Under the pieces are notes generated by a model. It searched no databases, was not told the DNA's origin, and worked only from the letters and a program-made list of their open reading frames with translations. Both the position numbers and the translations under genes were made by a program. From Balanoglossus misakiensis (Eukaryota > Animalia > Hemichordata), in assembly GCA_040954595.2 (NCBI GenBank), contig CM082584.2:5460110-5524109 (forward strand): a DNA stretch of 64,000 nucleotides, written 5' to 3'. Below, piece after piece: positions 40,101 to 64,000 of this stretch (position 1 is its first letter; the number at the start of each line of letters is the position of its first letter).

Positions 40101-41251
40101 ATCAATCAGAGGAAGGTGGAATTTGGAAAGAAGACAACCAAAGCAATGATCGTGGATGTGCTTACAGCTGTGCTGTCGAGTCAAGTCCGAGCAAGCCACC
40201 AAAGGCGACGGCCTAACACATCAATAAACATTAGCTTTCCATTGAATGAAGGAGTTATAAAAGACATTCAGGTGAAACAAAAACGTACTATTCATGATCA
40301 GTGTGGGTACTTCTGTGGTAGGTCCAGTGTAGCTGCAATGATTGTAGCGGGTGCTGCTGGGTTGAGCAGCACCAGCTACAATCATTGCAGCTTGTGTACA
40401 ATACGAGCGTGAAGTTGGCCTCATCCTCATCCTCAGCTTCGCCAGCCTCATCCTCATCCTCAGCTTCGTGACCCAGCCTCAGCTTCGTGACCCCAGGAAG
40501 TAAACATGAAAATTATCCAAACGATCGGTAAAAAGAACAAATGGAGTCAAAAGAAGAAATTCAATCAATTATTTAGACTATCCCATGTAAATTATTTTAC
40601 CTATATCGCTTTCGCTTCTTTTAGATCACATCAGATATACGAAATTCACGATAATTTTGAAATCTTCCTGAGGTCACGAAGCTGAGTCTGAGGTCACGAA
40701 GCTGAGGATGAGGATGAGGATGAGGATGAGGCTGGCGAAGCTGAGGATGAGGATGAGGATGAGGCCAACTTCACGCTCGTGTGTACAATAACATGTTTTC
40801 ATTCACTGCACTGGTCAGTGGCAAGTTTTGCAACATGCAGAATGGGTGTGATCGAATAAATCGTGTATGCGTAGTAGGCCCATAACGACAACGTAAGCCC
40901 ACGATCACCCCTGATAAGCCCAACTAACGCTAAATATTTGAAACGCAGAGAAAGATGGCAAGTACAAAGTTAGTAGAAACGGGAAGCAAAGAAAATGGCA
41001 CCAAGTGTCAAGTGGGCTTCCGGCGAAATACACTACAGTCACCCGTTCAGCGTTTGTGAAGTTTGGGTGAGGTGCTATTCAAGTCCAGAAACAACGTATC
41101 AAAATCGATATACTTACTTATAATTCGTCAGCACACTCTTGTTAACGATCACTATTAGAAAAGATGACAACCCGTAAAATACAGCCGACAGAATCATACC
41201 CAGCCGACTTTTCGGAGAGCTTCCGATTTGCTCTTTCGTACTGTCGGCCAT
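34153..41251 (-). CDS. SLC35D2: UDP-sugar transporter, SLC35D1/D2 (fringe connection/sqv-7) family, 11 coding exons, ~333 aa
   Basis: Exons 41251-41118, 39288-39255, 38486-38400, 37811-37744, 36913-36842, 36659-36591, 36334-36232, 35907-35747, 35412-35334, 35050-34968, 34264-34153. Motifs [89 protein letters not shown]1 versus D2 cannot be resolved. Confidence 0.93.
35980..36162. mobile_element. Tc1/mariner-like MITE
   Basis: TA|cagtcgaacctgtc ... acaggtttgactg|TA. Confidence 0.8.
37266..37431. mobile_element. Tc1/mariner-like MITE
   Basis: TA|cagtcaaacctgt ... acaggtttgactg|TA. Confidence 0.8.
40403..40780. mobile_element. Foldback/MULE-like non-autonomous element with internally repetitive TIRs and a 9-bp TSD
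   Basis: gtgtacaat|acgagcgtgaagttggcc(tcatcc)n tcagcttcg ... cgaagctga(ggatga)n ggccaacttcacgctcgt|gtgtacaat. Confidence 0.8.
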
Positions 41252-41334
41252 GTTGTCAAACTCTTCAGCACGGCGGAGTTAATTAAAAAGGACCCCTCAA
41301 CACAGTGAAAACTTTGCATTGCAAGTCCTTAGGC

Positions 41335-41625: not shown

Positions 41626-42436
41626 TAGTCTCGGTTACCCAGACGCCTTTGCTCTTCCGATGCTCTCCAGAAAAGGGTCTGGGGAAATACCGGTTACCCA
41701 GACGCCTTTGCTTCTTCCGATGCTCTCCAGAAAAGGGTCTGGGGAAATGCTATTGAAAGCGTTGTAAAACAAAATGGCCGATGTCAGGATTTTGATCATC
41801 GCCTGATTGGCTGAGCTCTCAGTATGACCCGGGTCATTGCAATAGTTTCGACAATCGTCTACCAAAGATATTTCATATAATTTCTCCAACAATGCTAACA
41901 GAGGACGCCTTTTGCCTTTCGCATCAACCAACAAGTACCGGTCTCTTGATATGAAGATACGACAAATAATCACACATTGTCAAGAGTCAGTGACCCGGGT
42001 CATACTGAGAGCTCAGCCAATCAGGCGATGATCAAAATCCTGACATCGGCCATTTTGTTTTACAAAGCTTTCAATAGCATTTCCCCAGACCCTTTTCTGG
42101 AGAGCATCGGAAGAAGCAAAGGCGTCTGGGTAACCGAGACTATTGAAAGCTTTGTAAAACAAAATGGCCGATGTCAGGATTTTGAACATCGCCTGATTGG
42201 CTGAGCTGTCAGTATGACCCGGGTCACTGCAATAGTTTCGACAATCGTCTACCAAAGATATTTCATATAATTTCTCCACCAATGCTAACAGAGGACGCCT
42301 GTTGCCTTTCGCATCAACCAGCAAGTACCAGTCTCTTGATATGAAGAGACGACAAATAATCACACATTGTCGAGAGTCAGTGACCCGGGTCATACTGACA
42401 GCTCAGCCAATCAGCGGATGATCAAAATCCTGACAT
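41626..42436. mobile_element. Rearranged MITE (TAG...CTA termini, long TIRs) with two internal tandem duplications
   Basis: tagtctcggttacccagacgcc (41626) ... ggcgtctgggtaaccgagacta (42142). A ~60-bp left-end duplication lies at 41631-41748, and the ~295-bp core is repeated at 42140-42436. Confidence 0.75.
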
Positions 42437-43205: not shown

Positions 43206-46200
43206 CTAAGAAGTGATATTGGCATATGTTTGAGTATTTTCATCGCAGTACGTCACAACCACTTCATAGCAGAGTTGATATTGTTCCTGGGGAAATATAA
43301 AGAAATGTTTGGGTTTATACAAATTGAAGCGTTGGATTGGACTTGTGTTTGACAGGAGTAGACAATGGACAGTGAGGGGTTACCGGTAGTTGTGGATCTT
43401 TGTAAAAATGTTGGTATTCTCAAATATATTGTTCAATCATTTCAAGCCTCTGATTTCTATTCAGAAATTGTTTATTTAAACTCTAACCTCACCAGTGATT
43501 GTTCTTGAAAGGAAAACAAGGGTGATTTGTTACTCTCAAAAAAGTATACCTACCAGAGTATATCCTTGGTACATACTTAGTAGACAGAGAGGGACAATCA
43601 TGCATTACTGCAGTAAATATACTGTCTATTCGTACCAGCCATTTCACTGTATATTTTACTCACCAATGTTTCAATCATGTTTGGTCTGAAATTTCTGATT
43701 GTCCTGACAGCCTGGAAGACGTCCACCATTTGATCGACTTCGATTCGTTCACATGCAGAGATGGCAGCACAGAATACGCCACTTCGACCAATACCATTGC
43801 TGAAAAGAAAAAGAAAAAGAAAAAGAAAAACCTCAAAATTATAATAGCAACATGTAATACCCCCAAAAATGGAACATTCATGTTCCGTTATAAGCAATGA
43901 CAGTTCTGATTCACACATGGAATTTCTGGCTGAAACAATAACTTACATGCAATGCACAGTAATGGGGCCATTTTCAGCTTCCTGTTGTATTTGCTTAACC
44001 ATGTTCATCAACTCTACGATGATCTTGGTCAGTTTCCCAGTTTCATGGTTGTGTTTCCAACTGCGAATTTGAAACTGGTGTATTGAGACAGAATCCTCTC
44101 CCTAAAAATGGAAATGATAGGATCACATTTGCATCTTTATTATAATTTTCTCTAGGTTTTCATGTATGAATATGCATGGTTACAGAAAAATATTTTTTAT
44201 GCCATACGCATAATAATAAAAATTGTAACAAGACAGACACTTTCAAAAATCAACCATTGATAGATTGGTTGATGATTGATAGATGGACAGACCAATCTCA
44301 GAAACCATTTCTTATTGTTCATTATCACAACAATGAACATTGAACAAAATATTATTTAAATTTCCTACCTTGGAAAGTGTAAGGATTCGTTTGACAATTT
44401 CTCCAACATTTACACTTTCAAGTTTCACGTCAAATGGTCCAAAATGTTTGTTTTCTAATTCACTAGGCCAGTAATAACAGCTACATGTATCCTATAAGAG
44501 ACACAGGGTTAATTTTATATTTCAACCACAACCAGTTGTTAAAGTACAAAAAAAATGGATAATGAACGTCAAATGCGATACTCACTGTCATTTCACTATC
44601 CACGTCGTTCAGCATAACTATGATACGCGATTTGTGATCATAGACCATTCTCCAGAAATCTACGATAGTACTTGGTAAGGGCATCTGGGTTACCAGGAAA
44701 GCATTCTTCACATTGTATGTCTATTAATTGAATAACAGATTAAATCATGTATAATAATGTTCCAAATGTTTGAAGAGACTTAAGTATCATAGTTTAGCAC
44801 TGCCATACCTGAATTTTAAGCTTATACAAAGACTATACTTACATCCAAGAAGCTTGCGTTAATGTAATCTGTTGATTTAGGATCCTGTATGACTGTAGTC
44901 AACATGGGACAGTACTTGTCAACTGTAACATGACCAAGAATCTGTGTGATTAGAGTACCCCCTATATATACTAGTTAATTCAAGCATACTATATGTTAAA
45001 TTTCTTCATTCCTCTTTTGTCTGGAGCCTTCGGACCCATAACTATGTTAATACACTTACTGGGCAAAATATTGGCAAACCGGTTTTTCTTTCGGTTTTTA
45101 GGTAGACGACCTTTCTTAGATTCTTCTGGTTTGGGTTTGTAACTGTTTCCGTTTAAATTCTGTACATTTGAGTGGAGAGAAAAAAATGATTGGTGTGAGT
45201 GAAATGATTCCAATTAAAATATATGATACTTAAGCTTCAATGAATTTCATATTACTTCCTCGAAATTAACTTGTGTTACTGTTGCAATGTGATCGTCCAG
45301 AGGTACATGTAGCTCTGTTAAGTCTTGAATAAAATTTACTCAAAGAAGATGCTACTGGATTTGAATATAAAAATCAGATATTTTGGCTGTTATTTTACCT
45401 AGGACTTAAAAATCAACACTAACCTGCCATTCTGAATACAGACGTGTTTTCATAGTTTGTTGATCTTTTTTCAGTAAATCAGTGAATGTCTTTTTAACAT
45501 CTGAGACTGGAATGGTCGTGGAGGTTAATCTTGTTGAAGGATTCAGGGAGGTATACTCCGATTCTGTTTCCTGAAAACAAAAGAGAACTCAAGTTGATGT
45601 AACTGTGCGGGTAAAAAGAACACAGGGATCATTTTGACCTGTTAACAGCTATGTGGACACAATGAAAGAATGGCTGGTCTTCTTTTAATTGCCACACCAC
45701 ATCCAGCAATGTTCAACTTTTTCCCAACATGTATAACCATTTTAATGTTTTACCAACAGGTTTATGTAATATGAAAATTTAATCAAAATGGCAGACTTTA
45801 AGCAAGGCTAGTACGTGGGTTATCCATAGATCAGGCAACCAGTAAAAGATTATCTGGAATTGGTGATGGAAACTAGGTAAGTTTAAAAAAGGGGTGTACC
45901 AGTACATACGTACTACATTGTTTAGATATGCACTGCCGTATACAAACCATTTCTATTGATAAACCAGCATATGCACTTTCTTCTGGATCCTTTTTAAATG
46001 TTGTAGCTGGTTTTAGATGTGACTTTCCCTTTGATCCTTCAGATGGTACATCTATATAAGCATACTGATCACCATCATCATTGAGGTCCTTTTCTGAGAA
46101 TGCTGAATTGGATGCATCAACTGCATTGAAAAGAGTTGTTTGTATTAATAGGCCATGAGTATATTATCAACAGTTATTTGGAAATAAATAACCTGAAATT

Positions 46201-49200
46201 TACATTGGAAAAACTCATTGGAGAAAAACTTATTTGGTGCTAGATAATACATACGCTATCTTTTACAGTTCAACAAGTATATGGACAAAAGCTGTGTTAA
46301 AATCAACTTCAAGATCATGCATCATAGAAGCTTTTATAGCAGCCAGAACGTTATAAATTGGATATTTTATGCCGGCCCAGGCCCAGCAGCGGTGCTACAC
46401 TGTCGTAAACTGTCCAGTCTGAACCCCTTTTGTACATCTTCGAAATTTACACAAATGTTCCATGAGAAACGGTTTGAAAGACCATTTGCTACCTGAGCAA
46501 GTTTCTTTACCTCGTTTTCTTTTGTCTGCAGTAGTAAGCTTGATTTCCTCTTGTTTGTTATTTCTGTTTGATTTACCTGAGTTTCGCCTATGGTATAAAA
46601 TGTTAAACCTGATTACAAAACTGTCTTATCTACCGGTATTATAGAATATGTAACCTGTAACGGCAATAAAACTGGAGTCAGTTTGCTTTTAAGTAAAAAG
46701 AAGACATGCATCCATGTTATTCTATCACTCACCATCGTCTTACTATGAAAAACGCACCAAAGAGGACACACATAACCAATGCTGTAGCGATGACACCACC
46801 AACAAAGGCAGCAACTGGTATACATGTACTTGGACAGGTAGTTGGCCCACCGGCTGTATTCATTTACAACAGATCATTGTGATAAAAGTGTTAGCCAGAA
46901 TTCATGACATCTTAAAGTATTTCTCAACTGAGAATGTATGACTGTATAGAGGAGCAGTAATATAGTATACATTGATGGCTGTACTTTAATGAAAAGCAAA
47001 AAAATATTTAAATCCAACATACATGCATATATAATAAGCCCACATTCATCTAAGAATATTGCTCCCTGTGATGGCCATCACGTCAGATCACATTGCATGA
47101 TCGTATTCATTGCATGATCGTATTCATTTGAGAGATTGTAGCTTTTCTGCTTTTTCATACTCAAGTCCAGTTCACAAATCAAAGGAATTAATATATCACA
47201 AGCTAAATGGCATATTGATGCAATCAAACATCTCAAATTAGAATTATAGTCATGCACTATAATTATGTAATGTAGTTGCTTACCTGTAAAGGAGAGGGCA
47301 GGAAATTCATCAAGATGGTATATAGGCATAGCCTTTGATGGTCACAGTGGAGGAATTTGATTTAAAAAAACATTTAATTACATTTCATGCCATTCAGTAA
47401 CATTTCAGACACACTGGTATATTGAAGAAAGGCTTAAATTGCAATGTGAACAGATGCTATGAAGATTTGCCCATAGACTAATACTACCATCAACATAAAT
47501 CACTATTTAATTTTACTTGTTACCACCTTACCCCACTTGTTTCACTTCTGAGTCCATAGTAAATGCCATATCGCGTTCCTGTGGTAAGTGGAACGTTGTT
47601 ATAACCACCATACACGTGACCATCACCAATAATGAACGTCTCTGGTAGATTATTGAGAGGAAGTAGTGCTGTGATGTAGTATGGTGTACCCGAAGCATTA
47701 TACTCTCCAAGTTCTGAAGGGTCTACCAGTAAATGTCGCCTTCTTCTATTCTTAGAACTCTCTTCATATTCCAGAACAACAACGTACTCACTGAGAAGAG
47801 AAAAGTGATACAATTAAATAAAAACTTTCAATCTGTGCCTTGACTGTCAATATGGTGATCTGGTAACATTTGGATTTCACATCAAACCTGTTGATGAGAT
47901 GAAAATTAATGCATATATAGGGTGGAATACCAACAAAATCACTTTTGTTCAATGCATCATGACAAAGCTACATCAATTACCCAATCTACCAATCTGCACT
48001 TACATGAGTGTTGTCTTTTCAGAAATGCCCGAGTCGTCTGACAAACCAGGTAAAGTAACCATGGCACTGGTCTTAGAATGTACAACATTACTTGTTACAT
48101 CTGTCACCAGCAGTGTTCTTGAAATATCAACTAAAATGTTAAGCAAATATATACAGAGAATTTAAAATTAAAATAATGTAAAATATTAAAGCAAGAAAAC
48201 AAAGGTGCACATAAACATTGAAAATTAGAGGCGATTACAACATACATGTAGATATGTTGGGAGAAGGTATCTACGCTACATTGTTTTGTTAATATCTTGA
48301 AAGCTGTGTAAAGAACAATGTTTTTAATTTTATAGGCTTGTACACCAGAATCTATAACATTTCTTTTCTTTTCTTGATTAATACTTTCTGAAGTAAAAAC
48401 TAAAGAAAAAGAAAATGACTGAAATCAGATCAATCACAAGATAGAATATTGACGCCCTTTGGTTCCTGAATTGACAAAAACAAAATGTGCACAATTCGGC
48501 GAGAGGTTCGCTACACAACACCATATGGGGCTTCTCCGTTGCTAAACAGTTGAGGGCGCGTCAGTGAAGAGCCTTGTAGCGAACCGTGGGCTGTCAGAGA
48601 GTTTAGTTCATGATATATTTGCACAACAAATAGAAATTAGGTAAAGGTTACATTTTCTACTGGTATTTTATAGTGGACAGACTACCTGTAAATGAAGTGC
48701 CACTTGACACAGTTCTGGGTTCTCCGAAACCCTTGGAAGTGCTGGCATTCACACTGATTTCATATGTGGTTCCAGGATTCAAATTTGTAAGTGTGTGAGT
48801 ATTCACTGTGCCTTCAACAAGAAACGATCGGGTCTCCATCTGTGTGTCTTTGAACACTGAATCTGTGGATGTGTATGATATCTGAAAAAAGAAATTTCAA
48901 TTTTTTTAGGTTTAGTAGTCATTTGTAAAGGCACTTTTTATATTCACAAAAAAAAAAACATTTTTTTGGAGAACCCTGACAGTAATAATTTATTGTCTCA
49001 ATTACAAATACAGATATGGATTTTTACTCTACAAATGGGTTCAATCCCATACAAAACATCTGAATTATTAGTTGATATTACGAAGCCAGTTTCATGGCTT
49101 CTGACATGAAAATATTGAGAAAAAAACCCTCATGTAATCTGTCAGAAAATGCTAGAAAACAAACCTATTAAAATATCTTACCCCATATTGTTGAATGTCT

Positions 49201-52200
49201 CCACTAAATGGAAAGGGATCTGTCCAAATCAATTTAATCTCAGTGTCTGTGATATCTCCAACTTCTAGACTGGTGGGCTCCTGTGGAACTAGTAGAGTCA
49301 AAAGGGAAGAAAACAATTACATGTACTTCTGTGAAGTAGTATTATTCAATGTGGGAGTGGTTATACTGTACAATTTGAAGAAAGTTATTGCTGCAAAGGT
49401 TATGTTCGTGGAGATTAGCACCTTGGAATTTACGGTATGTATTGCCTCTTTTACAGAAAATATTCATCAGGGCCTGTTAAATCTTGCACAAGTATTGTTA
49501 GATTTTGGTCAAATACTGAATTGATAATGATATGTTTAAACTTATAATGCACATCTTCAGCATGCTGCATGGTGATGTTGCCAAGGTTTTTTTAAGTAAC
49601 CTTCCCACTAGGGCTTATAACTTCATTTTTGACTGTAGTATGTATAGAAAACCACATCAACTTACTAATTGTCATTATTGTTGTTGCACTTTTTTCATCA
49701 CTTAAAGGTCCCATTCCTGGGGTTGTGAATGCTCCAACCTGAAAATTGCAAATAAATATATATACATTGTACTATTGTTTTGAACTTGTTAGTCAACGTA
49801 CAGCACTTGTCTATTGGGAGACTTTTTCCCACAAAAGTACTCACCACCTCATTTGCATGTTTGACAAGGTTTTCTGTCCTCAACAAAATTATTGCAAATA
49901 TAATCAACAATACATGTACACATACATGTATATTAACCTTTTGACAGAATAATAATTTTGTGGGGAAAGTTATGAAAATACATGTTATACCTGAACAGTA
50001 TATGAAACATCCTGTGTAAGGTTGGTTATGAGATATGTGTTAACACCACTCAGATCTTCTGTCACTTCTTTCTCTTTCTTTGTGTTTACATCGCTTGTTT
50101 CCCAGTAAATAATTGTATACTTTCTGACGATACCATTTACTGGATCAGGTATTAACCACTGCACTTCAATGGTTGTCACTGTAGGAATCAACGTCACATT
50201 TCGTGGTTTGGACGGCACTGGGTGCATAGAAAACAGTGTATCAGTTATTTACCTGTTTTTCTGGAGTGTGCTGTTGAAGGCATTAGACTGCCATGGGTCT
50301 GTTAGAGTTTAAGTTCTACAGGGCCTGAAAATTCATAAAATGTGCTAATTTCAATGATAGCTTGGTGTAAAAATGCACTTTTTTGTGTTCAAACTGGAAT
50401 GTTCAGCTCCTTTCACAGGTCTACACAGCACTGTTCAATATCTTTCACAAACATATACTGATGGATTTGTATACTTAGTATAGAGAGACCATGAGTTGAA
50501 GTAGTGACATCAAATAATTAAATGTTTCTCAGGATTTACAAATTGGTTCCTCAACTCACCATCTTCAGCGGTTCTTTCAGTTGACACTGGACTCCATGGA
50601 CTTTGTTCATCTCTATTGTCAAATGACACCATCACATCATACTCTGTGTATGCCAGTAATCCGTCAATTATGAAAGTACGTGCAGTTCCATCATTCACCA
50701 CTAACTCTGTATATTCATCATGAGTGTTTGTTTTCTTGTACTTCAAATTGAAACTCTCAATGTATCCATCAGGATTACATTTGATATCTGGTGTGTCAGG
50801 TACCTGTCATAAAGTCAAAAGTTGACAGCATAAATTACACTGTAACCATTAATCTTTAATAATTATAAAACTAATTCCATATTATTGATGCTTAATACAG
50901 AGGAGAACCTACAGTTCTATAGGCCAATAGTTCCTAGTTACCGTAATCAGTCTATTAATTCAACCGCTCCATTAATTCAACCACCCACTATTCTTTGGAA
51001 AATTAATTATTTTATAACCTTCAATTGTTTGACCACTGATTAAATGCATGTGTTGATATTGTGTATTTTTCATGAAGATATCTGCAACTTAAACCTTCCA
51101 AGGTATTCAGAACTCACTGATTTTATTCTGTGTGACCTTAAACAGTTCAATTCTATCATAAATATCACCTAAACTACATGCTGCTGGTGCATACAGTTCA
51201 TGCCATGCAAACATGCCCCCTGAAAAAGTATTCAAGCACTTTGAGTGGCCATTTTTGTTTTATTTTATTTTTATTCTATTAGTTTAGCTTTTCACAAATC
51301 ATATTTATTTTTTCTGGTCGAACTGATGGAGTGATTACGGTAAGATGTTTATTTGATATGGACTGTCTCACAGCCCCTTTTCTGGCTACTCAGATGTTAT
51401 ATTTTTCTGACCACCCTACTAGCCAACCAAGCTGGCAAAAGTAGTGTTGTTACACAATCCTCTGCTACCTCTGTCCTCTGACAGGGGCATCAGTATACAG
51501 CAGAGAATGAAACCAGAATAGCTGGCAAGAGACTGTAAAAGAGTCTACATGCACTAACATTTATGCCACTTTATGAGGATGTATATATATAAAAAATATA
51601 GAGTAATACGAAAATACCATAAACTTGGAAATTTTCGCAAACGAATTTTCGCGAACTTCGAAAGAGTCAAATAAACATGAAAATAAAAGTCACAAAAGAA
51701 CAATGTGTGATTTACATTGTGAAACATAACACACCGTCTCAGCTCTTCAAAATCAAACAGACAAACACATGCACACATTATTTTGCTACACATTGCGAAA
51801 TTTGTTTGAACATCAAGGTTTGTGGCCAAGAATCTTGCTACGAATAGGACAAATAAGCATACAATATAAGTTTTTCAGCGATAATGATGCAGTTAGTGAA
51901 ATACAACGAAATTTTTCTGTTGTGAAAGAATTCTGGTTTACAGTAAAATGAACTAACTACCGGAAAAGGTATGACTCTCTCCTCAGCTCGGACAGTCAGT
52001 CAGTACCATAGTATAACTATACGCCCTTTTCAATGATGCCTTGTTTGAATACAGAAGTACAAAGTGTACAAACCCTACCTCCACTGTAATTCCAATCTCA
52101 TTGGGGTCTGTCGATATTGCACTTTTAATTGTTGGTCCTTCTGAGGGAACTGAAAAAAAGTATATATTTATGTTGAAGGAAGTTTGCGCAATAATAACTG

Positions 52201-55200
52201 TACATATAATCCTGAAATGTCACTGTAATGAAATACTTTTCTCTCTAGCTATATTGTTAGCTGAAACAAATGGCTGATGACATCATACCAGTGGCTCCCA
52301 TGAGCCTTTTAGCACCCATTGGCTAGCTTTAATTCATGGCTATTTCTTCAGCTGTTTGCCAGTGCATGCGTCAAGTGATTATAAGCAGAAAGTGGACAAT
52401 TGGCCAAAATGGAAAATATAAATTTCACGTAGAAATTATCAACATTAGTGAATTTGTCCAGCCATCAACATCGGCAATAGTTTTGATTTTGTGGAACACA
52501 TCAACAGAAATCGAATTGTCCTGATATGCGATTGGCCTATTCTCTGAGGGTGCATAAATATATCACTTACCATCACACAGTGTAGTGGCTGTGGTAACAA
52601 TTTCCTTGCTCCCTTCTCCCTTGAGTCCAGGTCTCGTGACAGTCACTGTGAAATCATAACTTGTAGACCAGTCTAGACCAGTGATGTCTGTGTTGTAACT
52701 CGATTGATCAGGATTAGTTACTGTAATTGTACCATGAGATGTCCAATCATCATCTGATGTCTTTTTGTAGTAAACTAAGTAAGCTTCTGCAGGTCCATCA
52801 CCAACATCATTTCCTGACTCCCATTTCTGCCAAGCAACAGTTGCTTGAGTTGCTTGAACTGCAACGCCTGGTTTTTTATTATCTTTAAATCTTGGTAGTG
52901 CTGAATATTCAAACCATACAAATAAAATTATATGATTACAACATGGAAAAAAGATCTCATGAAATGATTGCATACAAAATATCATGGGTATGAAGAACTA
53001 AAGCATTGATATTGTTAGTCCTTTTACTTACCATACAACTCAAGAAATAACTGCTGAATAACAAAGGGAAAAGGAGCAATGTTTATATAACAATAATAGA
53101 TCTGGCCAATGTTCACAGTAACACCTCTGGCATTTGCTGTGTATTGATAGTCTGCTGCTTCTGCTTGAATATCATCAAACACTTCAGCCGTTGATCCAGA
53201 GAGGTAATATCCCATTTGATTCCGTTGTTGAGTTGGATTGCTTCGACCTTTACATGTAAAGTGTGTCTCTTCACCTGGGTTTACTTTCGTATTCTTGAAT
53301 TCTATTAATTTTGGAGAACCATCTGAAAATTGAAGCCATGAGCCATTTTTAATAAAAACAATACAAAAAAGTATAATTTTAATGAAGCTTATTAATAATC
53401 AATATCATATATTAAGCCAGGTGTGAAAGTGATACAGTAATCCTTTAGCTGAGATGTCACAAGCCAATATTGCACTTCAATATCAAATACACATCCCTCC
53501 CTTGCAATAATTACAACAGCAACAAACAAAATGGGAACCAATAGGGTGTACTGTGCATGTGTATTCAACCTGTTCGCACAAGTGTATGGTACTACATCAA
53601 ATACAAATGACTACCATAAGGTATGCTGAGTACGTAGTTCAAATTTTCTCAGGAGTTCAGCACACTGAAAAATAACCAGTAGAAAAAGAAATGAAACAGA
53701 ACCTATCAGTAACTCACCTTGTTGACAGTGACCACTTGAATGAACATCAATCCATCCTGGAGCACATTCTCCATTTGAACACAAATCAGTTGTCCTGTCA
53801 CACGCTGCATTGTCTTTGCAGTGACATTCATAACTGCACAAGTCACCATAGAAACCAGTAGTGCATGAATCAGGGACTACAGTATCAATAGAACGACAAA
53901 ATTAATTTATTTCAGTTCATGAAATAAATAGTAATTATAAATATATCTGAATCTATTACCATTACCCTGACAGTCAGATACACAAACTTTGTCATGCCGT
54001 ACATGTATATGCACGTCCAACTTGGGTTACAAAACTATAAAAAGCATCAGAAAAGATACTCCATCAGAAAAAGATAAGCACCCACCAAAGTATAAGATTT
54101 GTCACATAAAAAGATGGTCTTGCACCAGAAGAGAACATGAGGCCATGAATAAAAATGGCTGGTGTTCTTTTTATGTGAATTTCACACACCACAATTGACA
54201 CTTCATGCTGTCCTTCTGATGGGTATTCTGTGGTTCATTCAATAATCTTCGCCAGTGAGGGCATATGGGTTTTGTTCTGCTTTGTCATAAAATGTGTGTA
54301 CATGTATATATTTCTAAAAACAATTAACTGTCTTAGACTATATATGTTATAAAAGATACCAAGGAAAAGAGCCTCCCAACATTCAACAGAAAAAATCACT
54401 TACCATGACAATTTGTTCCACTCCACCCTGACTCACATACACCTCCACTGTTACATGCACCAGTTTCTTTATTACACCCATTGGTACAGTGACATGTCTG
54501 TGTACATCCAGAACCATACTTGCCATCTGGACAATCTGTCACAACACAAACAGCAATCATTATAATTTCCTTTTTGTGGTGGCCATTAAACTCTGCCAAC
54601 CTATACCATCTTGTTTTCAAAGGCACATTATACATGTAGATAACAAATATGTATTTATTTGTTTTTGTTACGAGTGAATAGTGATGACAAAATCCAACTT
54701 GTTTGTTGCATTGTCCATCACAATGAATACACTAACATGAACAATACTGTAAAACTTGTTATTTTCGCGATATCGAGACAGGCCACTGTTACGCGAGTAT
54801 TAATTTTCACGTTCTCGTACTGCATCGTTATCTCCGAAAACTACTGTTGTACTCTTATTTGTCGCATTTGTAGCAATATTCTTGCTCACAAACCACAATG
54901 TTCAAACAAATTGCACGATGTGTAGAAAAACATGAAACTGCAACCACTTTAATAAATTACCTGCACTTTCAAACTGAAAACATTTTGTTGCGTGTTTGAC
55001 TATCGTTCTATTACTAGTATTTACCACACTGTTCTTTCACAACTATACTTATGCGAGTCTTTATTTTCGCGTGTTTTGGCTCTTGTGTATTTCGCGTAAA
55101 TTTATTGCTCGCGAAAAAAACGTGTTTTACAGTATAAGTGTCATTTCTTGCATCAACAATTTTTCTTTATGAACCGGTTATACTTACCAGTTGAACAGTT

Positions 55201-56877
55201 TAGTCCTGTATATGATGTACTGCATGAACACCCATAAGGATCAGCTATGCAAAACATATTGCTGCGACATGCGTCTTGATCTGCACTTGAACACGCACGA
55301 CCACACTCTTTTCCCCATTTATTCTTACCACAGCCTGGGATAAAGAATTATCATGTATACCGTACAGTGTTGTAACACACCATGCAGTGAACCCTCGATC
55401 GTGATTCGTCAATACGCCGTCACGTGACCTTAGTAATTTTGAACTGTTCCCTAGGGCATCATTTCGATCAGTTTCTGCCCGGTACTGTTGCCCCGTCTTG
55501 ATATAATTCCGTGTTTGGTGTGTTACAAAACTCATGATGACTGACATATTCGGGCAACAGTGTATTTTTGATGACCTCGGGACTGCCAGTCACACCAAAA
55601 CAGTCTGTTTTCCCTCGGGCTATGCCCTCGGGAAAACTTGTGACTAGCAGCGCCCTCGAACATCAAAATACACTGTTGCCCTCATTGTCAGTCATCATGT
55701 GTATACTGATTAATGATCAAATACATTGCTTGTGTATGAATGTTACATTGCAACCCATTTTAACAGCAAATTGTTTCCATCATCTTAGTCATTCAAATAT
55801 TATAATCAGGTGCATGAAACATTGAACATGAGTAGGTGGTACAAGATGTCTGGAATGGATATTAAGCAGTCGATAAGCATATGTGCTACACAAAGTGAAA
55901 AATTATATAGCTTGTGATATTATACCAGTTAGTTTGTAACGTTTGTGATTTGCTACTGGTATGTCTGAAAATGCTCGCTTGGGAAAAATATGCAGACATT
56001 AATTGTACCTATTCCTATGAGACAATGTCCAATTTCCATATAGGATTATTCCCAAATAAGTCTTCCAATTTGACCATACTGGCACACATTTTTTGGTGTG
56101 ACCATAAAATGTTTGCTTTTATACTTGTAAATAATTGGTAGATTTACATACTGCTGAGAGTTCATGTAAGTTCTCCTTTTAGTACTTAATCGTCCCACTT
56201 AATTATCAGGTTTATCAGAAAATGGATGTACCAGATAACAATTTCACAACTTCAATAGCTATGAACTAGTATACAATGAGCAAATAGTTCTTTGGCATAT
56301 TGCTAAGGAGATTGATTGGGCGTAAACTCTTCCCTTATCCAATTCACACCTGCACAACCTTCTTGCAATTAGTACATGTATTTCATCACTTTTAACACTT
56401 AATATTTAAATATAAAAACATAATGATGTCACTCACCAGTTTCACAGTTGCTTCCCATGAATCCAGGCGGACATATACACTCACTAGTGTCAGAGTTGCA
56501 TATTCCTCCATTGTAACATGTTGGACATGAAGACAGACAGTCTGGTAATCCCCATTTTCCATTTGGACAACCTAAAATGGGAATTGAATATGAATTTCGA
56601 CTTAATTTTCATTCCGATTGTAAATTCAAGAGTAATGCATTCCTGTTGATCTTTTGAGTATGATGCTTTCAACCAATAAAAAAAGTTACCTGGTAAAAAA
56701 TGGATGAATTACAAAATGGTTTTGTTAAGCATTTGCTCAAATACCAAAATGGTAGCTAATACAAGCCTAGCTTAAAGTGGTGAGTTTTGACTGTCCTCAT
56801 CTTGTTTAGCGAAAAATGAAATGACTTTCACAATTGTAAATAGTGAACTTGGGGTACATTGCAATTTATGTTACTTT

Positions 56878-56964
<87 letters not shown>

Positions 56965-58996
56965 TTCATTTATTTATTTATTTATGTATGTATACATGTA
57001 TTTATTTATTCATCTTTATATATTTTTCAATCTATGAATTTTATTAGGTTTGATAGTGATAAAAAACAGAATGGGCCTTGCAGGTTAATATAAACGTGTC
57101 TCGACATGTCATGTGGAAATAACTAGAAGAGGAGATTTTAAGTTAAACATAAATGTACTGCAGCTTTAGCCTATAACATAAGCAGTGTCAATCACTTTTT
57201 ATTACCTCTGACAATCAGTCTCATAAATCCATGCAGTCCTTGACTTCGTTGGGTGTCATTGGTGTAACATTCATAGATTCCTGCATCACTGGTCTTTGCA
57301 AATGATATTGTAATACTCTTCTGACCATTCCAGTTTGTTTTCTCATTTTCACCATGTCTCCATTTCAATGATGATTCAGCGATTGATGTTGTCATGGTCA
57401 ATGTTACATCATCTCCAAAACTCACTGTTTTGGTTTGACTTTCTGGTTGGATTTCAGCTGGCAGATGCACAGAGACAGACAATTGGCTTTGATTCATATT
57501 GCTTACACTGAAAAATGATCTTCAAATCATCAATCCATATATATATTTGAGATAATTTTATGTGCCATTATATCAGCGAGACAAAACTGCCCAAATTCAC
57601 CCATCCATCCATTAACCCACACATGAAACTATCAAATTTATGAGTAATGTATGTTCAAAATGCCAATACTACCGTTGTCATTTTAGCGACCCGAAACACT
57701 GATCAGAACTCCAATATAATTAGCCAAAGTAAACTGAGATTTTTATGCTGAAGTCAGCATCTGGTTACGTCCGTTTTGATCATTAGAACTGATTAGAGCA
57801 GTTCTGTATCAACACACTCTGGGGGGTGTCCTGCTTCGAACATGTCTAAAACACATGTGTACACATTTGTAAAGAGATTTTACACAGGGTCAGTTTTGAA
57901 GCAGGATGCCCCCTGTGGTACATGTTGATACAGAGCTATGTAATCAGTTATAATGATCATTGCAAATGTAATCATATGCCGACTTCAGCATAGCAATCTC
58001 AGTTTACTCTGGCTAATTATATTGGAGTTCTTATCAGTGTTTCGGGGTGCTAAAATGACAACGGTAGTAAGATTTGTTCATAACTTACCAGTTGCAGCAA
58101 CCTGTACTGTTACAAGTCTCTCAGTTACTGCACTGTTAGGCAAGGCTTCACAGTAGTACACACCAGGTCTGCCAGCACCAGTTGGTAATTTAAGTCTTCT
58201 TGCATAGCCACCAAAGTTTTCATATGAATGGCCTGCAGGAAGGTCATCTCCTGTGCCTGTGTTTAGGAATCTTCCAAAGACGAAATTTCTACCTACAGTA
58301 TTAGGGTTACCAGCTGAGTATCCGCCAATGAAATAATCACTATCACTTAAACTTGGTAATGCTCTAAAATTATAGAAGGTCACATCTAACCGAGCATCTG
58401 CAAAATAAAATGAATTAATTGAAAGGAATGTCTGTCTCAAAAATGTACCTTGTATGGTACAAATCAAAGAGAATTGTGGCTAATTTATATTATGCATGTT
58501 TAATCGCGGTTTTGTTCATGCAGACACAAGTGACAAGAATGCTTGGCTAGAAAACCAATAATGGCCTGGTGTTGTCCTTTAATGCATTAATTGGCAAATC
58601 CTAGCAACCAGGAAGTATAATGGTAAGAAACTCCAAGCTATGAAGGTGCTTGCCATAAACTTCAAAATACAACTGTACAACACATTGTTTTGGGCATTAT
58701 TGACATGGTCATATATAGTTAGTTTTTGCTACCATTTTGATTATTTTGACACTTTCAATTTGTGTATATCTAGCTTGGAAAATCACACACATGGTCTTTT
58801 TAGCAGCAAATGTCATCTGTATGCTCAAACTAACTTATGGCAGCTACCAGAATCATAAATTTCACACTGTCTATATTTTTTGGTTTGATTCAGAGAGTAT
58901 GCATGCAGCTATGAGAACTTGACCAACATTTATAACTCATAACTTACCTGTGAATGTCAATGGAATGAATAAAACCAGGCTTAGAAGACGATGCAT
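43206..58996 (-). CDS. Receptor-type protein tyrosine phosphatase-like protein with Tie-like ectodomain (SP-Ig-Ig-4xEGF-Ig-4xFN3-membrane-proximal domain-TM) and a single D2-type PTP domain, 29 exons, ~1500 aa
   Basis: Exons 58996-58948, 58397-58089, 57457-57206, 56571-56437, 55334-55188, 54535-54404, 53876-53718, 53322-53032, 52900-52571, 52149-52079, 50803-50560, 50217-49991, 49738-49666, 49288-49182, 48881-48686, 48130-48004, 47790-47532, 47332-47284 (weak acceptor), 46853-46733 (TM), 46587-46493, 46120-45948, 45570-45424, 45159-45060, 44922-44843, 44720-44586, 44491-44369, 44101-43947, 43799-43664, 43286-43206. Sum is 4503 nt in frame. PTP motifs KNRF, DYINASF, TQMPLPSTIVDFWRMVYD, YWP, VHCINGIGRSG, EQYQLCY. 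Tie-like motifs RLIVRGCPNGKWG and FCIADPYGCSC. Confidence 0.88.
54746..55133. mobile_element. TA-flanked MITE (CTGT...ACAG family)
   Basis: tactgtaaaacttgttattttcgcga ... ctcgcgaaaaaaacgtgttttacagta. Confidence 0.65.
55534..55699. repeat. Palindromic hairpin element
   Basis: atgatgactgaca..gggcaacagtgtatttttgatg / catcaaaatacactgttgccc..tgtcagtcatcat. Confidence 0.65.
56877..56985. repeat. (ATTT)n tetranucleotide microsatellite
   Basis: About 27 tandem tatt units; source of the IYLF-repeat ORFs. Confidence 0.95.
57667..58069. mobile_element. TA-flanked MITE with ~90-bp TIRs
   Basis: TA|ctaccgttgtcattttagcgacccgaaacactga ... tcagtgtttcggggtgctaaaatgacaacggtag|TA. Confidence 0.8.
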
Positions 58997-59516: not shown

Positions 59517-60809
59517 TAGAATTCATCATCAAATAAACTGTCACAGATAACTTAAGTTACTTTTTAAAAATTTATTGAAATATTAAACGCCATTGTATGC
59601 AACAACAAAAATGTAAATACAGGAAAACAATCTATAAGATAATATGATCACTAGAACAGAACAAGCTTGTTGTGGTGCCTGAATATTTCATTGGTCAATG
59701 TAGAATTCATCATCAAATAAACTGTCACAGTTAATTAAGTTACTTTTAAAAAAAATATTGAAATATTAAATGCTATTGTATGCAACAACAAAAATGTAAA
59801 TACAGGAAAACATAATCTATAAGATAATATGATCACTAGAACAGAACAAGCTTGTTGTGGTGCCTGAATGTTTCATTGGTCAATGTAGAATTCATCATCA
59901 AATCAACTGTCACAGTTAATTAAGTTACTTTTAAAAAAATTATTGAAATATTAAACGCCATTGTATGCAACAACAAAAATGTAAATACAGGAAAACAATC
60001 TATAAGATAATATGATCACTAGAACAGAACAAACTTGATATGGTGCCTGAATATTTCATTGGTCAATTAAAATTCATCATCAAATCAACTGTCACAGTTA
60101 ATTAAGTTACTTTTAAAAAAATTATTGAAATATTAAACGCCATTGTATGCAACAACAAAAATGTAAATACAGGAAAACAATCTATAAGATAATATGATCA
60201 CTAGAACAGAACAAACTTGATATGGTGCCTGAATATTTCATTGGTCAATGTAGAATTTATCATCAAATCAACTGTCACAGTTAATTAAGTTACTTTCAAA
60301 AAAATTATTGAAATATTAAACGCCATTGTATGCAACAACAAAAATGTAAATACAGGAAAACAATCTATAAGATAACATGATCACTAGCACAGAACAAACT
60401 TGATATGGTGCCTGAATATTTCAATGGTCAATGTAGAATTCATCATCAAATCAACTGTCACAGTTAATTAAGTTACTTTTAAAAAAATTATTGAAATATT
60501 AAACGCCATTGTATGCAACAACAAAAATGTAAATACAGGAAAACATAATCTATAAGATAATATGATCACTAGAACAGAACAAGCTTGTTGTGGTGCCTGA
60601 ATGTTTCATTGGTCAATGTAGAATTCATCATCAAATCAACTGTCACAGTTAATTAAGTTACTTTTAAAAAAATTATTGAAATATTAAACGCCATTGTATG
60701 CAACAACAAAAATGTAAATACAGGAAAACATAATCTATAAGATAATATGATCACTAGAACAGAACAAGCTTGATGTGGTGTCTGAATATTTCGATCATTG
60801 GTCAATGTA
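59517..60809. repeat. Tandem array, 7 units of ~183-185 bp
   Basis: The unit start tagaattcatcatcaaat recurs at ~59517, 59701, 59886, 60068, 60251, 60434 and 60619, and the units are near-identical. Confidence 0.95.
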
Positions 60810-63678
60810 ACGGCTGCAACGTGGGGGTTGCACTGGACGCCAGTGTTCATCAATGCAGTTGTAGATGTGTCTGTCACGGAATGGCATGTATCCTTCTTCG
60901 CAATGTAGAATACATTGAAATCCATCTGGTGAATCTCCGCAAGATAACGTCCCATCCTGAGGGTCTCCTAGGTCTGGACACTCAGCTGATGTTGGAAAGC
61001 GACATCAAATAAACAAAAAACAAAAAGAGTATAATGATGGATTGCTTATCTGTGAAAATAGAAAACCTCTAACTATGTCCTAAAACCCAGATAACATTTT
61101 GGTCAGTATAGTAATCAAAGATGACATGCTCACCATAACGGCCATATTCTCAATTATGAGAAGCAGTCGCAAAGTTGTGCTATTGAATATTCAGAAGTTC
61201 TACACCTTATAACTTGCTGATCTGAAACATATCTTTAACATAATAATACTACACTAGCATGCAACTATTGAGGTATATGGACTACTAGAATCTTCAAATC
61301 AGCTCATATCATTGTAATCATAGGTGAATCGACAGGTTTCGATGTATAAACCACAAGAATTTCAGTAATTCAAATAAACAGCAGGTCATAAATGATATAT
61401 GATGTCAAAAAGGTAATATTGTGGGGGTATGGGAAAACACAGTAACCAGTCATTACTTACCACGGCTGTGTATGATGGTGATATCGAATGTACACGTGGC
61501 TACATTTGCAGAGGTGTCTACAGCTGTGACTGTTACGGTATGAGGACTTCCTGTGACAGTAAACTCTGAACCACTCGCCCGGCTTGTTGTGACGAAAGCC
61601 AATTCGGTGTTGTCCGTAGCGACTGGTGGAAGCCAATCAATGTCAACGCCAGCATCTGACGTGTTTTGTGATTGGTCAGGCGGACAGAATGTTATCTTCG
61701 GTGGGTAAGGATCTGAATGTGATGAAAAATTAGACAAATACTAGTATATAATCAAATTTATCTCATTGTTCATATGAAAGGTATACAGTCACCTCCAATT
61801 TACATACAACCATATATGGCTAACATGGCGTATTTGAGTGTTCAAAAGAACATATGGTGGCGCTGTTTTTTTCGCATGTGCCACCCACTGAAAATCTGTG
61901 ATTGGCTAGATCTCAATTTGCCATGGTAACTATAGCTAATTTTCCATAGGTGACCGTATACCTTTAACAGACTTAGACAAATAATAGTAATCAAATTTTC
62001 CTCATTGTTCATATTAACAGACTCTTTTTGCATGTCAATACACTTGGTATTTTACCTCAGATTTTGATGTATTGCTTTATTTGCAACTGACCGGGTATTT
62101 TCAATCTCAAAGTCAAAATAGGAAGCAGCCACACACTAAAGACTTACCAACCACTTTCACTTGAAATAGGCACCATGCTTCTTCCTGACCAACTGCAGCC
62201 CGTACGTTGATGTGAACACCAGCCTTTGTCTGATCATTAAATTGTATGGTGCCGGGAATTTGGATGGCACCCATGACTTCATGTGTGATGACATTACCTC
62301 TTGCATCGATAGCCTCAATGCTGACATCAAGGTAAGCTGTGTCGCTATCTTCACTTAATACTGTCAGTAGTATGGGTGCAGTCGGGCACAGTCGGAATGA
62401 CACTGGCCCTGTAAATGGCGTTACTGAAATTCAAGAAAATTGTAAAGGCATTTCATATGTGTGACATGAATGTCCCAGCAATACATATTATTATAAAATG
62501 GCTATTGCAATATGATAATGTCTCCAAAACTCTGCATTAAGAAAATAAAAATAAGCTGCATTATGTGATTATTATAACATCATATACCAGTATATGTATC
62601 AATAACTTAAGGTGATTACTTCCTATCAACTTGTACAATATACTTCATTTTTTTTCTGTTGACTTTTGAGTTATGTCATATTGAATAATGCAAAAATGAC
62701 AATTATTGACAATATGTATATACTAACCTGTTGGTGTTGATAAAGTGGTTCCTTTTAATAAACAGACAAAGAACAATGTTAGTTTTATTACCTACTGGGA
62801 ATTTGCAACATGGATTGAATGAATCAACGTTCGACCACACACAACTTCCATCCCGTTTGTAGGATAGTAAAAACTCGCCCAAAATGAATAATTGGTAGAG
62901 AACGATTATACATTTTGGTGAGTTTTTTCACTCTCGTGTCTACCAGCGGGATGGAAGGTGTGTTTGGTTGAACGTTGATTCACTATATATATCCACATGT
63001 AGAATAACATAAACAGTGTCTTGTATCAAACATAATTAATGGAAAAAGGGCAGAGAGAGACTTTGTCTCTTTTAAGGCCGAGCTTACTTGTCACTGTTGT
63101 TGTTGCACTTTTTGCCTCACTTAAGGGTCCCCTCCCTCGTGATGTGTATGCCCCAACCTGAAAATATAATATAATTGTTAAATCCTAGGCAACAACATTA
63201 TTTTGTATCTCTTAAACTATACTGAGTGAAACTGCTCATCATATGTGGGTCTTTCTTCTCAGAGTACTCATCACCACACAAATTGCCCCATACCTTAATT
63301 AACTTGCTGATTTGTGACAACCTAGCACAGATGCAGTCAACAAAAGTAATGACCACCTATTGAAATATTTGATGAAATAATAATTTCATAGGAATTTAAT
63401 ATTGATGGAAATACATGAAAACAAAACGCTTGCCCATATCAATACTATTACCTGAACAGTATATGAAACCTCATTTGTAAGGTTGGTTATGAGATATGTG
63501 TTAACACCACCCAGATCTTCTGTCACTTCTTTCTCTTTCTTTGTGTTTACATTGCTTGTTTCCCAGTACATGATTTTATACTTTGTGATGATACCATTTA
63601 CTGGATCAGGTATTAACCATTGCACTTCAATGGTCGTCACTGCAGGAATCAACGTCACATTTCTTGGTTCGGATGGCA
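60795..63678 (-). CDS. Partial gene (5' end beyond the window): FN3 - Thr-rich linker - HYR-like - HYR - Sushi/CCP, with no TM in the visible part
   Basis: Exons 63678-63452, 63157-63088, 62751-62728 (24-nt microexon), 62423-62148, 61712-61461, 60985-60795. HYR motif DPYPPKITFCPPDQ..VDIDWLPPVATDN..VTVTAVDTSANVATCTFDITI. Sushi-like CPDLGDPQDGTLSC..CILHCEEGY..YNCIDEHWRPVQPPRC, followed by a TGA stop. Confidence 0.8.
62815..63070. mobile_element. Partial copy of the AGGGACAAAGTCTC Kolobok-like MITE
   Basis: Ends in ...cataattaatggaaaaagggcagagagagactttgtctct|TTAA and is homologous to the right part of 19776-20123. Confidence 0.7.
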
Positions 63679-64000
63679 CTGGGTAAATGCATGAAAATAA
63701 TACACATATTAAATTTAAGATTTAGATGTTCCATATAAAATGTTTCTTAAATTTATCTGTACAGGTAGTTTTCCTCTTCAGGTGACTGTATTTATATTCT
63801 ATGACTTGGTATGATGTTGTGTTTTTTTTTAAGTTGGTTGATATTAATACCTCTAACAGTTAAGTATACAGCACATTAGCCATTAGTAAGCTTATTTAAA
63901 TTGACCAATCTAAGTTTGAAAGTACAATCATGATGAAAATAATGCAATAATTAATTGGCATTCAGTTATTCACTTAGCCACTCAGTCAGGTAATCAGTCT

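Follow-up and report, generated by a model that had tools for sequence, protein, structure and literature searches.

Gene structure and domain architecture

We analysed a 64,000-nucleotide stretch of the genome of the acorn worm Balanoglossus misakiensis (hereafter the window; assembly GCA_040954595.2, contig CM082584.2, positions 5,460,110 to 5,524,109 of the forward strand), which has a base composition of ~36% GC and contains no N. Its minus strand carries a gene, here called the window gene, for a receptor that joins an ectodomain capped like that of the angiopoietin receptors Tie1 and TEK (Tie2) to a single protein tyrosine phosphatase (PTP) domain, which proved to be of the second (D2) type found behind the first (D1) domain in two-domain receptor PTPs (RPTPs). 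The exon chain was assembled on the minus strand from stop-to-stop frames and splice-site lists, and comprises 29 coding exons totalling 4419 nt, with agreeing phases, GT-AG boundaries at every intron and no internal stops. This bears out the intact 29-exon reading frame described in an earlier note on this DNA, which had put the product at 1500 amino acids; its actual length is 1472. The splicing that we propose is based on splice sites and on colinear homologous gene models, and the 11-nt microexon (exon 20) is the least certain of all exons (Table 1).

A Pfam scan covering 20 of the 29 exons found immunoglobulin (Ig) domains on exon 3 and, weakly, on exon 8, EGF on exons 4 and 6, fibronectin type III (FN3) on exons 9, 11, 12 and 15, Fn3_PTPRU (PF23144) on exon 17 (E 2.4e-10; 41.3 bits against a cut-off of 24.7) and Y_phosphatase on exons 25, 27 and 28. 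The domain order is a Tie-like Ig-Ig-EGFx4-Ig cap, four FN3 domains, a PTPRU-type FN3 with a tetrabasic site, a transmembrane (TM) helix and one PTP domain. The tetrabasic site is presumably cleaved by furin, a reading that we take over from what is known of R2A and R2B receptors. All motifs quoted in the earlier note could be located in the product: RLIVRGC (residues 199-205) and DPYGCSC (280-286) in the ectodomain, and KNRFANI (1228-1234), TQMP (1274-1277), SWKHNHET (1363-1370) and HCINGIGRSG (1399-1408) in the PTP domain. That note gave the ectodomain as Ig-Ig-EGFx4-Ig-FN3x4, an order that stands except that the fifth, PTPRU-type FN3-like domain had been overlooked. It was right that one TM helix (a single hydrophobic stretch, residues 1060-1093) is followed by one PTP domain, and it missed a juxtamembrane tyrosine pair and a relic of D1 in exon 22, both described below.

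Table 1. Features of the window gene (positions in the window; aa, residues of the product)
Feature	Position	Strand	Evidence or remark
Whole gene	43206..58996	-	51-53% full-length identity to P0012, P0003, P0004
Exon 1, with start codon and probable signal peptide	58948..58996	-	Hydrophobic N-terminus; similar start in relatives
Exons 2-3, Tie-like Ig1 and Ig2	57206..58397	-	Pfam Ig on exon 3 but not on exon 2
Exons 4-7, each EGF-like; Tie signatures	53718..56571	-	Pfam EGF on 4 and 6 only
Exon 8, Ig3	53032..53322	-	Varies more among paralogs than the rest of the N-terminal cap
Exons 9-15, four FN3 domains	48686..52900	-	fn3 above Pfam cut-off on exons 9, 11, 12, 15
Exons 16-18, membrane-proximal PTPRU-type FN3	47284..48130	-	PF23144 on exon 17
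KNRRRR, likely furin site	47736-47753, aa 963-968	-	Within the membrane-proximal PTPRU-type FN3
Exon 19, TM helix	46733..46853	-	Kyte-Doolittle peak 2.6
Exon 20, 11-nt microexon bridging the phases of exons 19 and 21	46577..46587	-	AG/GT flanks, phase match
Exon 21, juxtamembrane, Y1116/Y1118 and Y1147 (first tyrosine of the pair)	45948..46120	-	ESAYAGL at 45960-45980
377-bp intron, inferred place of the deleted D1 exons	45571..45947	-	No D1 there by tblastn or profile
Exon 22, relic of D1 last helix and D1-D2 linker, Y1160	45424..45570	-	SEYTSL at 45544-45561
Exons 23-29, lone D2-type PTP domain (Cys1400 kept)	43206..45159	-	Profiles, trees, motifs, fold of P0012
C-terminal YANI	43215-43226	-	End of the exons 23-29 segment

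Relatives and distribution of the architecture

We examined 182 proteins, 181 of them fetched and one the product of the window gene. Those with a Tie-like Ig2-EGF block (see below) come mostly from echinoderms, amphioxus and acorn worms and are a sample, the search having given the best 120 of 446 matches. The closest matches were acorn-worm gene models, among them the full-length relatives P0012 (Glandiceps talaboti, 1479 aa), P0003 and P0004 (Ptychodera flava, 1493 and 1496 aa), which share 51-53% identity with the window gene product and, like P0017 (G. talaboti), have one PTP domain apiece. G. talaboti belongs to the Spengelidae and P. flava to the Ptychoderidae. A further G. talaboti protein, P0005 (XP_077981808.1, 1823 aa), has the same ectodomain, with 60% identity to the window gene in the cap, followed by both D1 and D2. 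The consecutive accessions XP_077981808, 809 and 810 are carried by P0005, P0012 and the enzyme-less P0050, an order suggesting that these are neighbouring genes of a tandem cluster.

The Tie-like Ig2-EGF block was present in 125 of the 182 proteins, 44 of which have two PTP domains and 23 a kinase; the rest comprise 25 with a TM helix and no enzyme, 28 that are TM-less or fragmentary, 4 whose only PTP domain is a D2 and 1 with just a D1. The fusion of a Tie-like cap to a phosphatase receptor, reported earlier as a chimera, is not peculiar to this gene: such fusions are common among echinoderm, amphioxus and acorn-worm gene models (44/125). D2-only forms made up 6 of the 85 PTP-bearing proteins, every one from an acorn worm (the window gene, P0003, P0004, P0012, P0017 and P0044; the P0044 model is scrambled, its partial D2 lying at the N-terminus). 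The existing relatives are automatic RefSeq models labelled PTPRS-, PTPRK- or PTPRF-like, and literature searches with few subscription journals in scope returned no described D2-only or Tie-capped RPTP; sea-urchin and genome-wide phosphatome catalogues may list such genes. What is new here is that acorn worms have, among the widespread Tie-capped RPTPs, a subfamily with D2 only, whose putative tyrosine docking pair lies at the deletion junction.

In an Acanthaster model (P0139), which may be incomplete, the loss is reversed: the receptor is Tie-capped and its one PTP domain is of D1 type. Several amphioxus models (P0089, P0134, P0152, P0156 and others) combine a Tie-like ectodomain and a fibrinogen-type domain (PF00147) in one chain, the tail being a PTP in some and a kinase or SAM in others.

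The lone phosphatase domain is of D2 type

For classification of the lone domain we built D1 and D2 profiles from two-domain proteins, excluding the lone domains themselves, and calculated two trees. The PTP domain of the window gene scored 291 bits on the D2 profile and 176 on the D1 profile. In the first tree (23 D1, 23 D2 and 5 lone domains, with 16 proteins omitted as near-duplicates or for fragmented domains) the lone domains formed one clade (support 100/97) whose sister was the D2 of P0005 (99/92). The second tree, for which 28 second domains, 6 D1 outgroup sequences and 6 lone domains were hand-picked from 85, again recovered the lone clade (99/94) and its grouping with the P0005 D2 (94/96), nested in a 100/100 clade that includes the D2 of fish R2B receptors. 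D1 and D2 were separated with 100/100 support in both trees, and the lone domains always fell on the D2 side. By profile and phylogeny the lone domain is a D2, in agreement with the earlier assignment, and the trees fit a single origin of the lone-D2 form. One sign cited for that assignment, KNRF in place of KNRY, had to be dropped as a D2 marker, since the D1 of P0005, with canonical WPD and HCSAGVGRTG motifs, also reads KNRF.

The signature loop HCINGIGRSG is identical in the window gene and the D2 of P0005, the two domains being 50% identical overall. The WPD Asp is missing from every lone domain (SWKHNHET in the window gene), and the Q-loop of the lone D2s reads ETLEQ (ETLEQY in the window gene) as opposed to QxxxQ in D1s. 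Among the five complete lone domains the catalytic Cys is kept in all, and the P-loop Arg is lost in two (P0003 and P0004). The window gene departs from active PTPs in the WPD Asp, the Q-loop Gln and the HCSAGxGR signature. Judged from these residues the lone D2 is probably dead as a catalyst, and the absent WPD Asp and the Q-loop Glu agree with the earlier description of a dead or weak domain.

An AlphaFold model of the P0012 tail, made from a 39-row alignment, had a mean predicted local distance difference test (pLDDT) score of 80.5, with values over 90 in most of D2, and its fold matched RPTP structures, those of the PTPRA, PTPRD, LAR and PTPRE D2 leading. The ESM Atlas returned only generic PTP clusters, below 0.9. 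Identity in D2 is 54-56%, comparable to that of the FN3 domains.

Loss of D1 and its relic in exon 22

Between the TM exon and D2 the introns measure 94-456 bp, and neither tblastn nor profile searches found D1 exons there; the gene thus lacks the membrane-proximal D1 of the two-domain RPTPs (R1, R2, R4 and R5). A search of this region for D1 remnants, as the earlier note had advised, gave 26 tblastn matches in 45420-47300 with 76 D1 queries, the best with E 1.4, and showed no D1 and no remnants in the introns; the best matches of the D1 profile anywhere in the window were the D2 exons. Exon 22, which encodes 49 residues and is of phase 0-0, aligned with a single gap to 50 residues of P0005 spanning the last helix of D1 and the D1-D2 linker. 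The score of this alignment was 81, a value reached in 0 of 2000 shuffles, as against 21 for the region preceding D1, and a comparison with 72 two-domain proteins placed exon 22 nearer the linker than the pre-D1 region in 56 cases. Exon 21 showed a weak likeness to the P0005 juxtamembrane region (45 of 2000 shuffles scored as high) and none to D1 (437/2000). On this alignment evidence exon 22 is a relic of the last D1 helix and the D1-D2 linker. Because exon 22 matches the end of D1 and the linker, and exon 21 weakly matches the juxtamembrane region and not D1, the D1 exons were likely deleted between exons 21 and 22.

The loss is common to P. flava and G. talaboti models and hence to two families, Ptychoderidae and Spengelidae. 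The locus does lie in a duplicated cluster, where D1 exons might be absent from one assembly only; since the window has no N, four complete models from two named species lack D1 as well and have the relic remodelled in the same way, and the lone domains form a single clade, the chance of such an artefact appears negligible. From these comparisons the loss of D1 is not an assembly error, and the proposal that D1 was lost is upheld by the trees, the absence of D1 exons and the relic in exon 22.

A conserved juxtamembrane tyrosine pair

In the relic, the P0005 sequence FIHTAL aligns with EYTSL of the window gene. Since a Tyr occurs at the matching helix position in 29 of 69 two-domain proteins, Y1160 may be inherited rather than new. 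When five lone-D2 and three D2-less proteins were aligned (147 columns), the sole invariant columns were the Y and L of Yx[ST]L, and all eight members had a second Tyr 11-14 residues upstream of it. The longer form SxYx[ST]L was found in 4 of 5 complete lone-D2 proteins and 3 of 4 enzyme-less acorn-worm paralogs, and in 0 of 74 juxtamembrane regions of two-domain proteins. The P. flava proteins P0002, P0046 and P0074 stop a few residues past the tyrosine pair, without D2, and the pair can therefore outlast D2. In the AlphaFold model of the P0012 tail, our stand-in for the window gene, pLDDT was <50 over the motif region, which is accordingly predicted to be disordered.

We compared the pair with immunoreceptor tyrosine-based activation and inhibition motifs (ITAM and ITIM). 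The ITAM consensus, Yxx[IL]x6-9Yxx[LI] (10.1101/2022.03.04.482883), is matched by YAGL-x9-YTSL of the window gene, which is the only match among the five lone-D2 proteins, and by 3 of 4 enzyme-less paralogs and 0 of 74 two-domain controls. The window gene also has two sites that match the ITIM consensus [ILVS]xYxx[IVL], which occurred in 4 of 5 lone-D2 proteins (0.77 expected by shuffling), 3 of 4 enzyme-less paralogs and 19 of 74 two-domain controls (13.5 expected). The tandem pattern in a relaxed form, defined post hoc, matched 5/5 lone-D2, 3/4 enzyme-less and 3/74 two-domain proteins. The C-terminal YxN, present in all five lone-D2 proteins, is ancestral, given that it is also found in 56 of 74 two-domain proteins; by analogy with PTPRA it may act as a Grb2 site. 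In P0048 (P. flava) the C-terminus repeats the juxtamembrane tyrosine block several times and ends in the pair YTGL-x9-YTSL.

The Tie-like ectodomain

Compared with TEK (Tie2) structures, the close relative P0001 matched from residue 96 on (E 3e-55). Angiopoietin binding by Tie2 is reported to be dominated by the F161-P166 strand and, within it, by F161 and P166 (PMC8294587). In the alignment with P0001, F161-S164 fall in a gap and P166 stands opposite a Glu, and Ig2 of the window gene aligns to six relatives with no insertion at this place. Because the key strand lacks a counterpart in P0001, angiopoietin-type binding, which the earlier note had envisaged, is unsupported as judged through this relative. 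Among acorn-worm paralogs the median pairwise identity was highest in Ig2 and the EGFs (65-68%; 19 rows) and lowest in Ig3 (31%; 15 rows), a divergence that may reflect diversifying recognition or simply low constraint.

Proposed function and alternatives

Taken together, we tentatively suggest, at a little less than an even chance, that this Tie-capped, D1-less receptor with a lone, predicted-inactive D2 works as a phosphotyrosine docking receptor and not as an enzyme. The suggestion builds on the observed architecture, the D2 identity, the exon 22 relic, the loss in two families and the conserved tyrosine motif; its ligand, phosphorylation and effector steps are conjectural. Deletion of the D1 exons would have placed Y1147, from exon 21, 13 residues from Y1160 of YxSL, from the relic of the last D1 helix, in a region predicted to be disordered. 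Once clustered through a ligand bound to its Ig/EGF cap, the receptor would be phosphorylated on the Y1147/Y1160 pair by a Src-type kinase, with no D1 present to reverse it, and a tandem-SH2 protein would dock, either Syk/Shark if the pair acts as an ITAM or SHP-2 if it acts as an ITIM, two possibilities that we consider about equally probable. D2 would be retained as a scaffold that binds proteins, and adaptors would attach at the C-terminal YxN. Amphioxus SYK has been reported to bind and phosphorylate an ITAM receptor (PMC13344425), so ITAM machinery exists in invertebrate deuterostomes.

Several points weigh against docking. The strict ITAM consensus is confined to one of the five lone-D2 proteins, the others departing from it by V or M at +3 or by a spacer of 10 residues. 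Both the relaxed pattern and SxYx[ST]L were picked after viewing the alignment, whose eight members are kin and not independent. Of the juxtamembrane regions of Tie-like kinases, 5 of 20 have tandem tyrosine motifs too, as do 3 of 74 from two-domain proteins; the relaxed pattern also occurs in 4 of 20 further enzyme-less receptors, and P0050, an enzyme-less paralog, is without the motif. The D2-less tails are gene models that could be truncated predictions, and D2, kept at 54-56%, by all appearances has a job that docking explains only loosely. A bolder version, unlikely in our estimation, is that the exon deletion turned a phosphatase receptor into an activating immunoreceptor: the junction ITAM, half from the juxtamembrane exon and half from the last D1 helix, would reverse the sign of signalling, a D1+D2 sibling in the cluster with the same ectodomain would give the enzymatic off signal, and Ig3 would be a diversifying recognition surface.

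The main alternative, which we hold to be less probable than docking and which can coexist with it, is that the protein acts like PTPRU as a decoy or tuner of an active sibling, sharing the ligand and the D2-recruited substrates of a D1+D2 paralog and shielding those substrates from dephosphorylation. In G. talaboti such a sibling exists in P0005: its ectodomain is the same, with the caps 60% identical, its D2 is sister to the lone D2s in both trees, and its accession adjoins those of D2-only and enzyme-less models, as in a tandem cluster; in addition, R2B D2 domains are reported to recruit substrates independently of phosphotyrosine (PMC6440744), and PTPRU has been proposed as a decoy of this kind (10.1101/805119). 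However, three paralogs lost D2 and kept the tyrosine pair, the 50% identity of the window D2 to the sibling D2 does not assure common partners, and word-based database searches found no P. flava D1+D2 sibling with a matching ectodomain, P0014 being a more distant paralog.

That the D2-only form is a by-product of birth and death in a fast-duplicating cluster that sheds domains, serving mainly in adhesion or ligand capture with little cytoplasmic signalling, is in our view improbable. It would account for the many truncated relatives (25 TM-only and 28 TM-less or fragmentary among the 125 Tie-like proteins) and for the near-identical FN3 exon copy upstream (211/227 nt) in a different domain context, but not readily for a D2-only form that is intact in both Ptychoderidae and Spengelidae, nor for the conservation of D2 and YxSL within a juxtamembrane region of only 6-28% identity. 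Still less probable is a lone D2 with low or redox-gated catalysis, or one acting as a substrate trap. In its favour, the window gene retains Cys1400 and the P-loop Arg, none of the five complete lone domains has lost the Cys, and two mutations are said to reactivate the LAR D2 (cited in PMC6440744). Against this, no lone domain has the WPD Asp, the Q-loop Gln is replaced by Glu, and the D2 of PTPRK is reported to be inactive even after motif repair (PMC6440744), the wider clade that holds the lone D2s and the fish R2B D2 having 100/100 support. Substrate trapping, raised in the earlier note, is made doubtful by the two P. flava paralogs that lack the P-loop Arg and by PTPRK D2, which binds its partners with no need of phosphotyrosine (PMC6440744).

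Comparison with known systems

The nearest comparison is with the Tie-capped two-domain RPTPs of ambulacrarians and amphioxus, such as P0005, which share the ectodomain of the window gene from Ig1 to the PTPRU-type FN3. P0005 shares the sister D2 and the identical signature loop. These RPTPs keep a canonical D1, whereas the window gene has only the relic of the last D1 helix, remodelled to YxSL. With the vertebrate R2B receptors (PTPRK, M, T and U) the lone D2s share the 100/100 D2 clade, through fish R2B, and the membrane-proximal PTPRU-type FN3. PTPRU is reported to be inactive (10.1101/805119), like the predicted state of the window gene, but it retains a degenerate D1 next to D2 where the window gene has a deletion. 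The R2B ectodomain, MAM-Ig-FN3x4, is not matched: the window gene has the Tie-like cap, and no MAM domain was found in the 20 exons scanned or in the whole relatives P0012, P0003 and P0005.

Tie1 and Tie2 (TEK) have the Ig-Ig-EGF-Ig-FN3 order and cysteine signatures in common with the window gene, which differs in its four EGF exons, its five FN3-like domains and a PTP in place of the kinase. The angiopoietin-binding FIHSVP strand of TEK has no counterpart, as judged through P0001. PTPRN and PTPRN2 (IA-2) differ from the window gene in ectodomain and family. They resemble it as receptors with one inactive PTP domain, being described as pseudoPTPs (10.1101/805119). Hydractinia Alr proteins are likewise duplicated receptors with variable ectodomains and ITAM/ITIM tails (10.1101/2022.03.04.482883), tails that, as described, are without a PTP domain. 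The clustered EGF-RPTPs of Biomphalaria SudRes1, linked to parasite resistance in the snail, are described with tandem PTP domains (PMC12297450). Neither the Alr nor the SudRes1 tails are homologous to that of the window gene.

D2 domains nearly always lie behind an active D1, which makes their own function hard to isolate. The acorn worms offer a natural family, in two taxonomic families, with D2 and no D1, beside an intact sibling and D2-less copies, and hence a comparison series for D2 alone. If the tyrosine pair were a working ITAM or ITIM, it would give an immunoreceptor motif with a traceable origin in the remains of an enzyme domain, and would bear on the origin of paired immune receptors in invertebrate deuterostomes.

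Neighbouring sequences

Upstream of the window gene, at 60798-63721 (-), is the end of a paralog that includes copies of exons 12 and 13 (211/227 and 60/73 nt identical), followed by one further exon, an HYR exon (E 2e-10) and a cysteine-rich exon, Sushi-like on inspection by eye though without a Pfam match, that stops at a tandem repeat. This points to recent duplication, with a C-terminus that differs and may be secreted. Between this paralog and exon 1 lies a tandem array (59517-60792) with a 183-bp unit in 6.9 copies and 96% matches.

Other neighbouring genes, of housekeeping type, are by Pfam BSMAP/TMEM59-like (4631-4987, -), HOOK (16570-24125, -) and one with RING and DUF1232 (28345-30266, +), presumably RNF170-like. 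An exon at 41117-41278 (-) has no Pfam match and is presumably similar to the N-terminus of a nucleotide-sugar transporter. At 41638-42402, a pair of minus-strand frames resembling each other and one related frame on the plus strand, with a 60-bp tandem pair and no Pfam match, are probably a repeat element.

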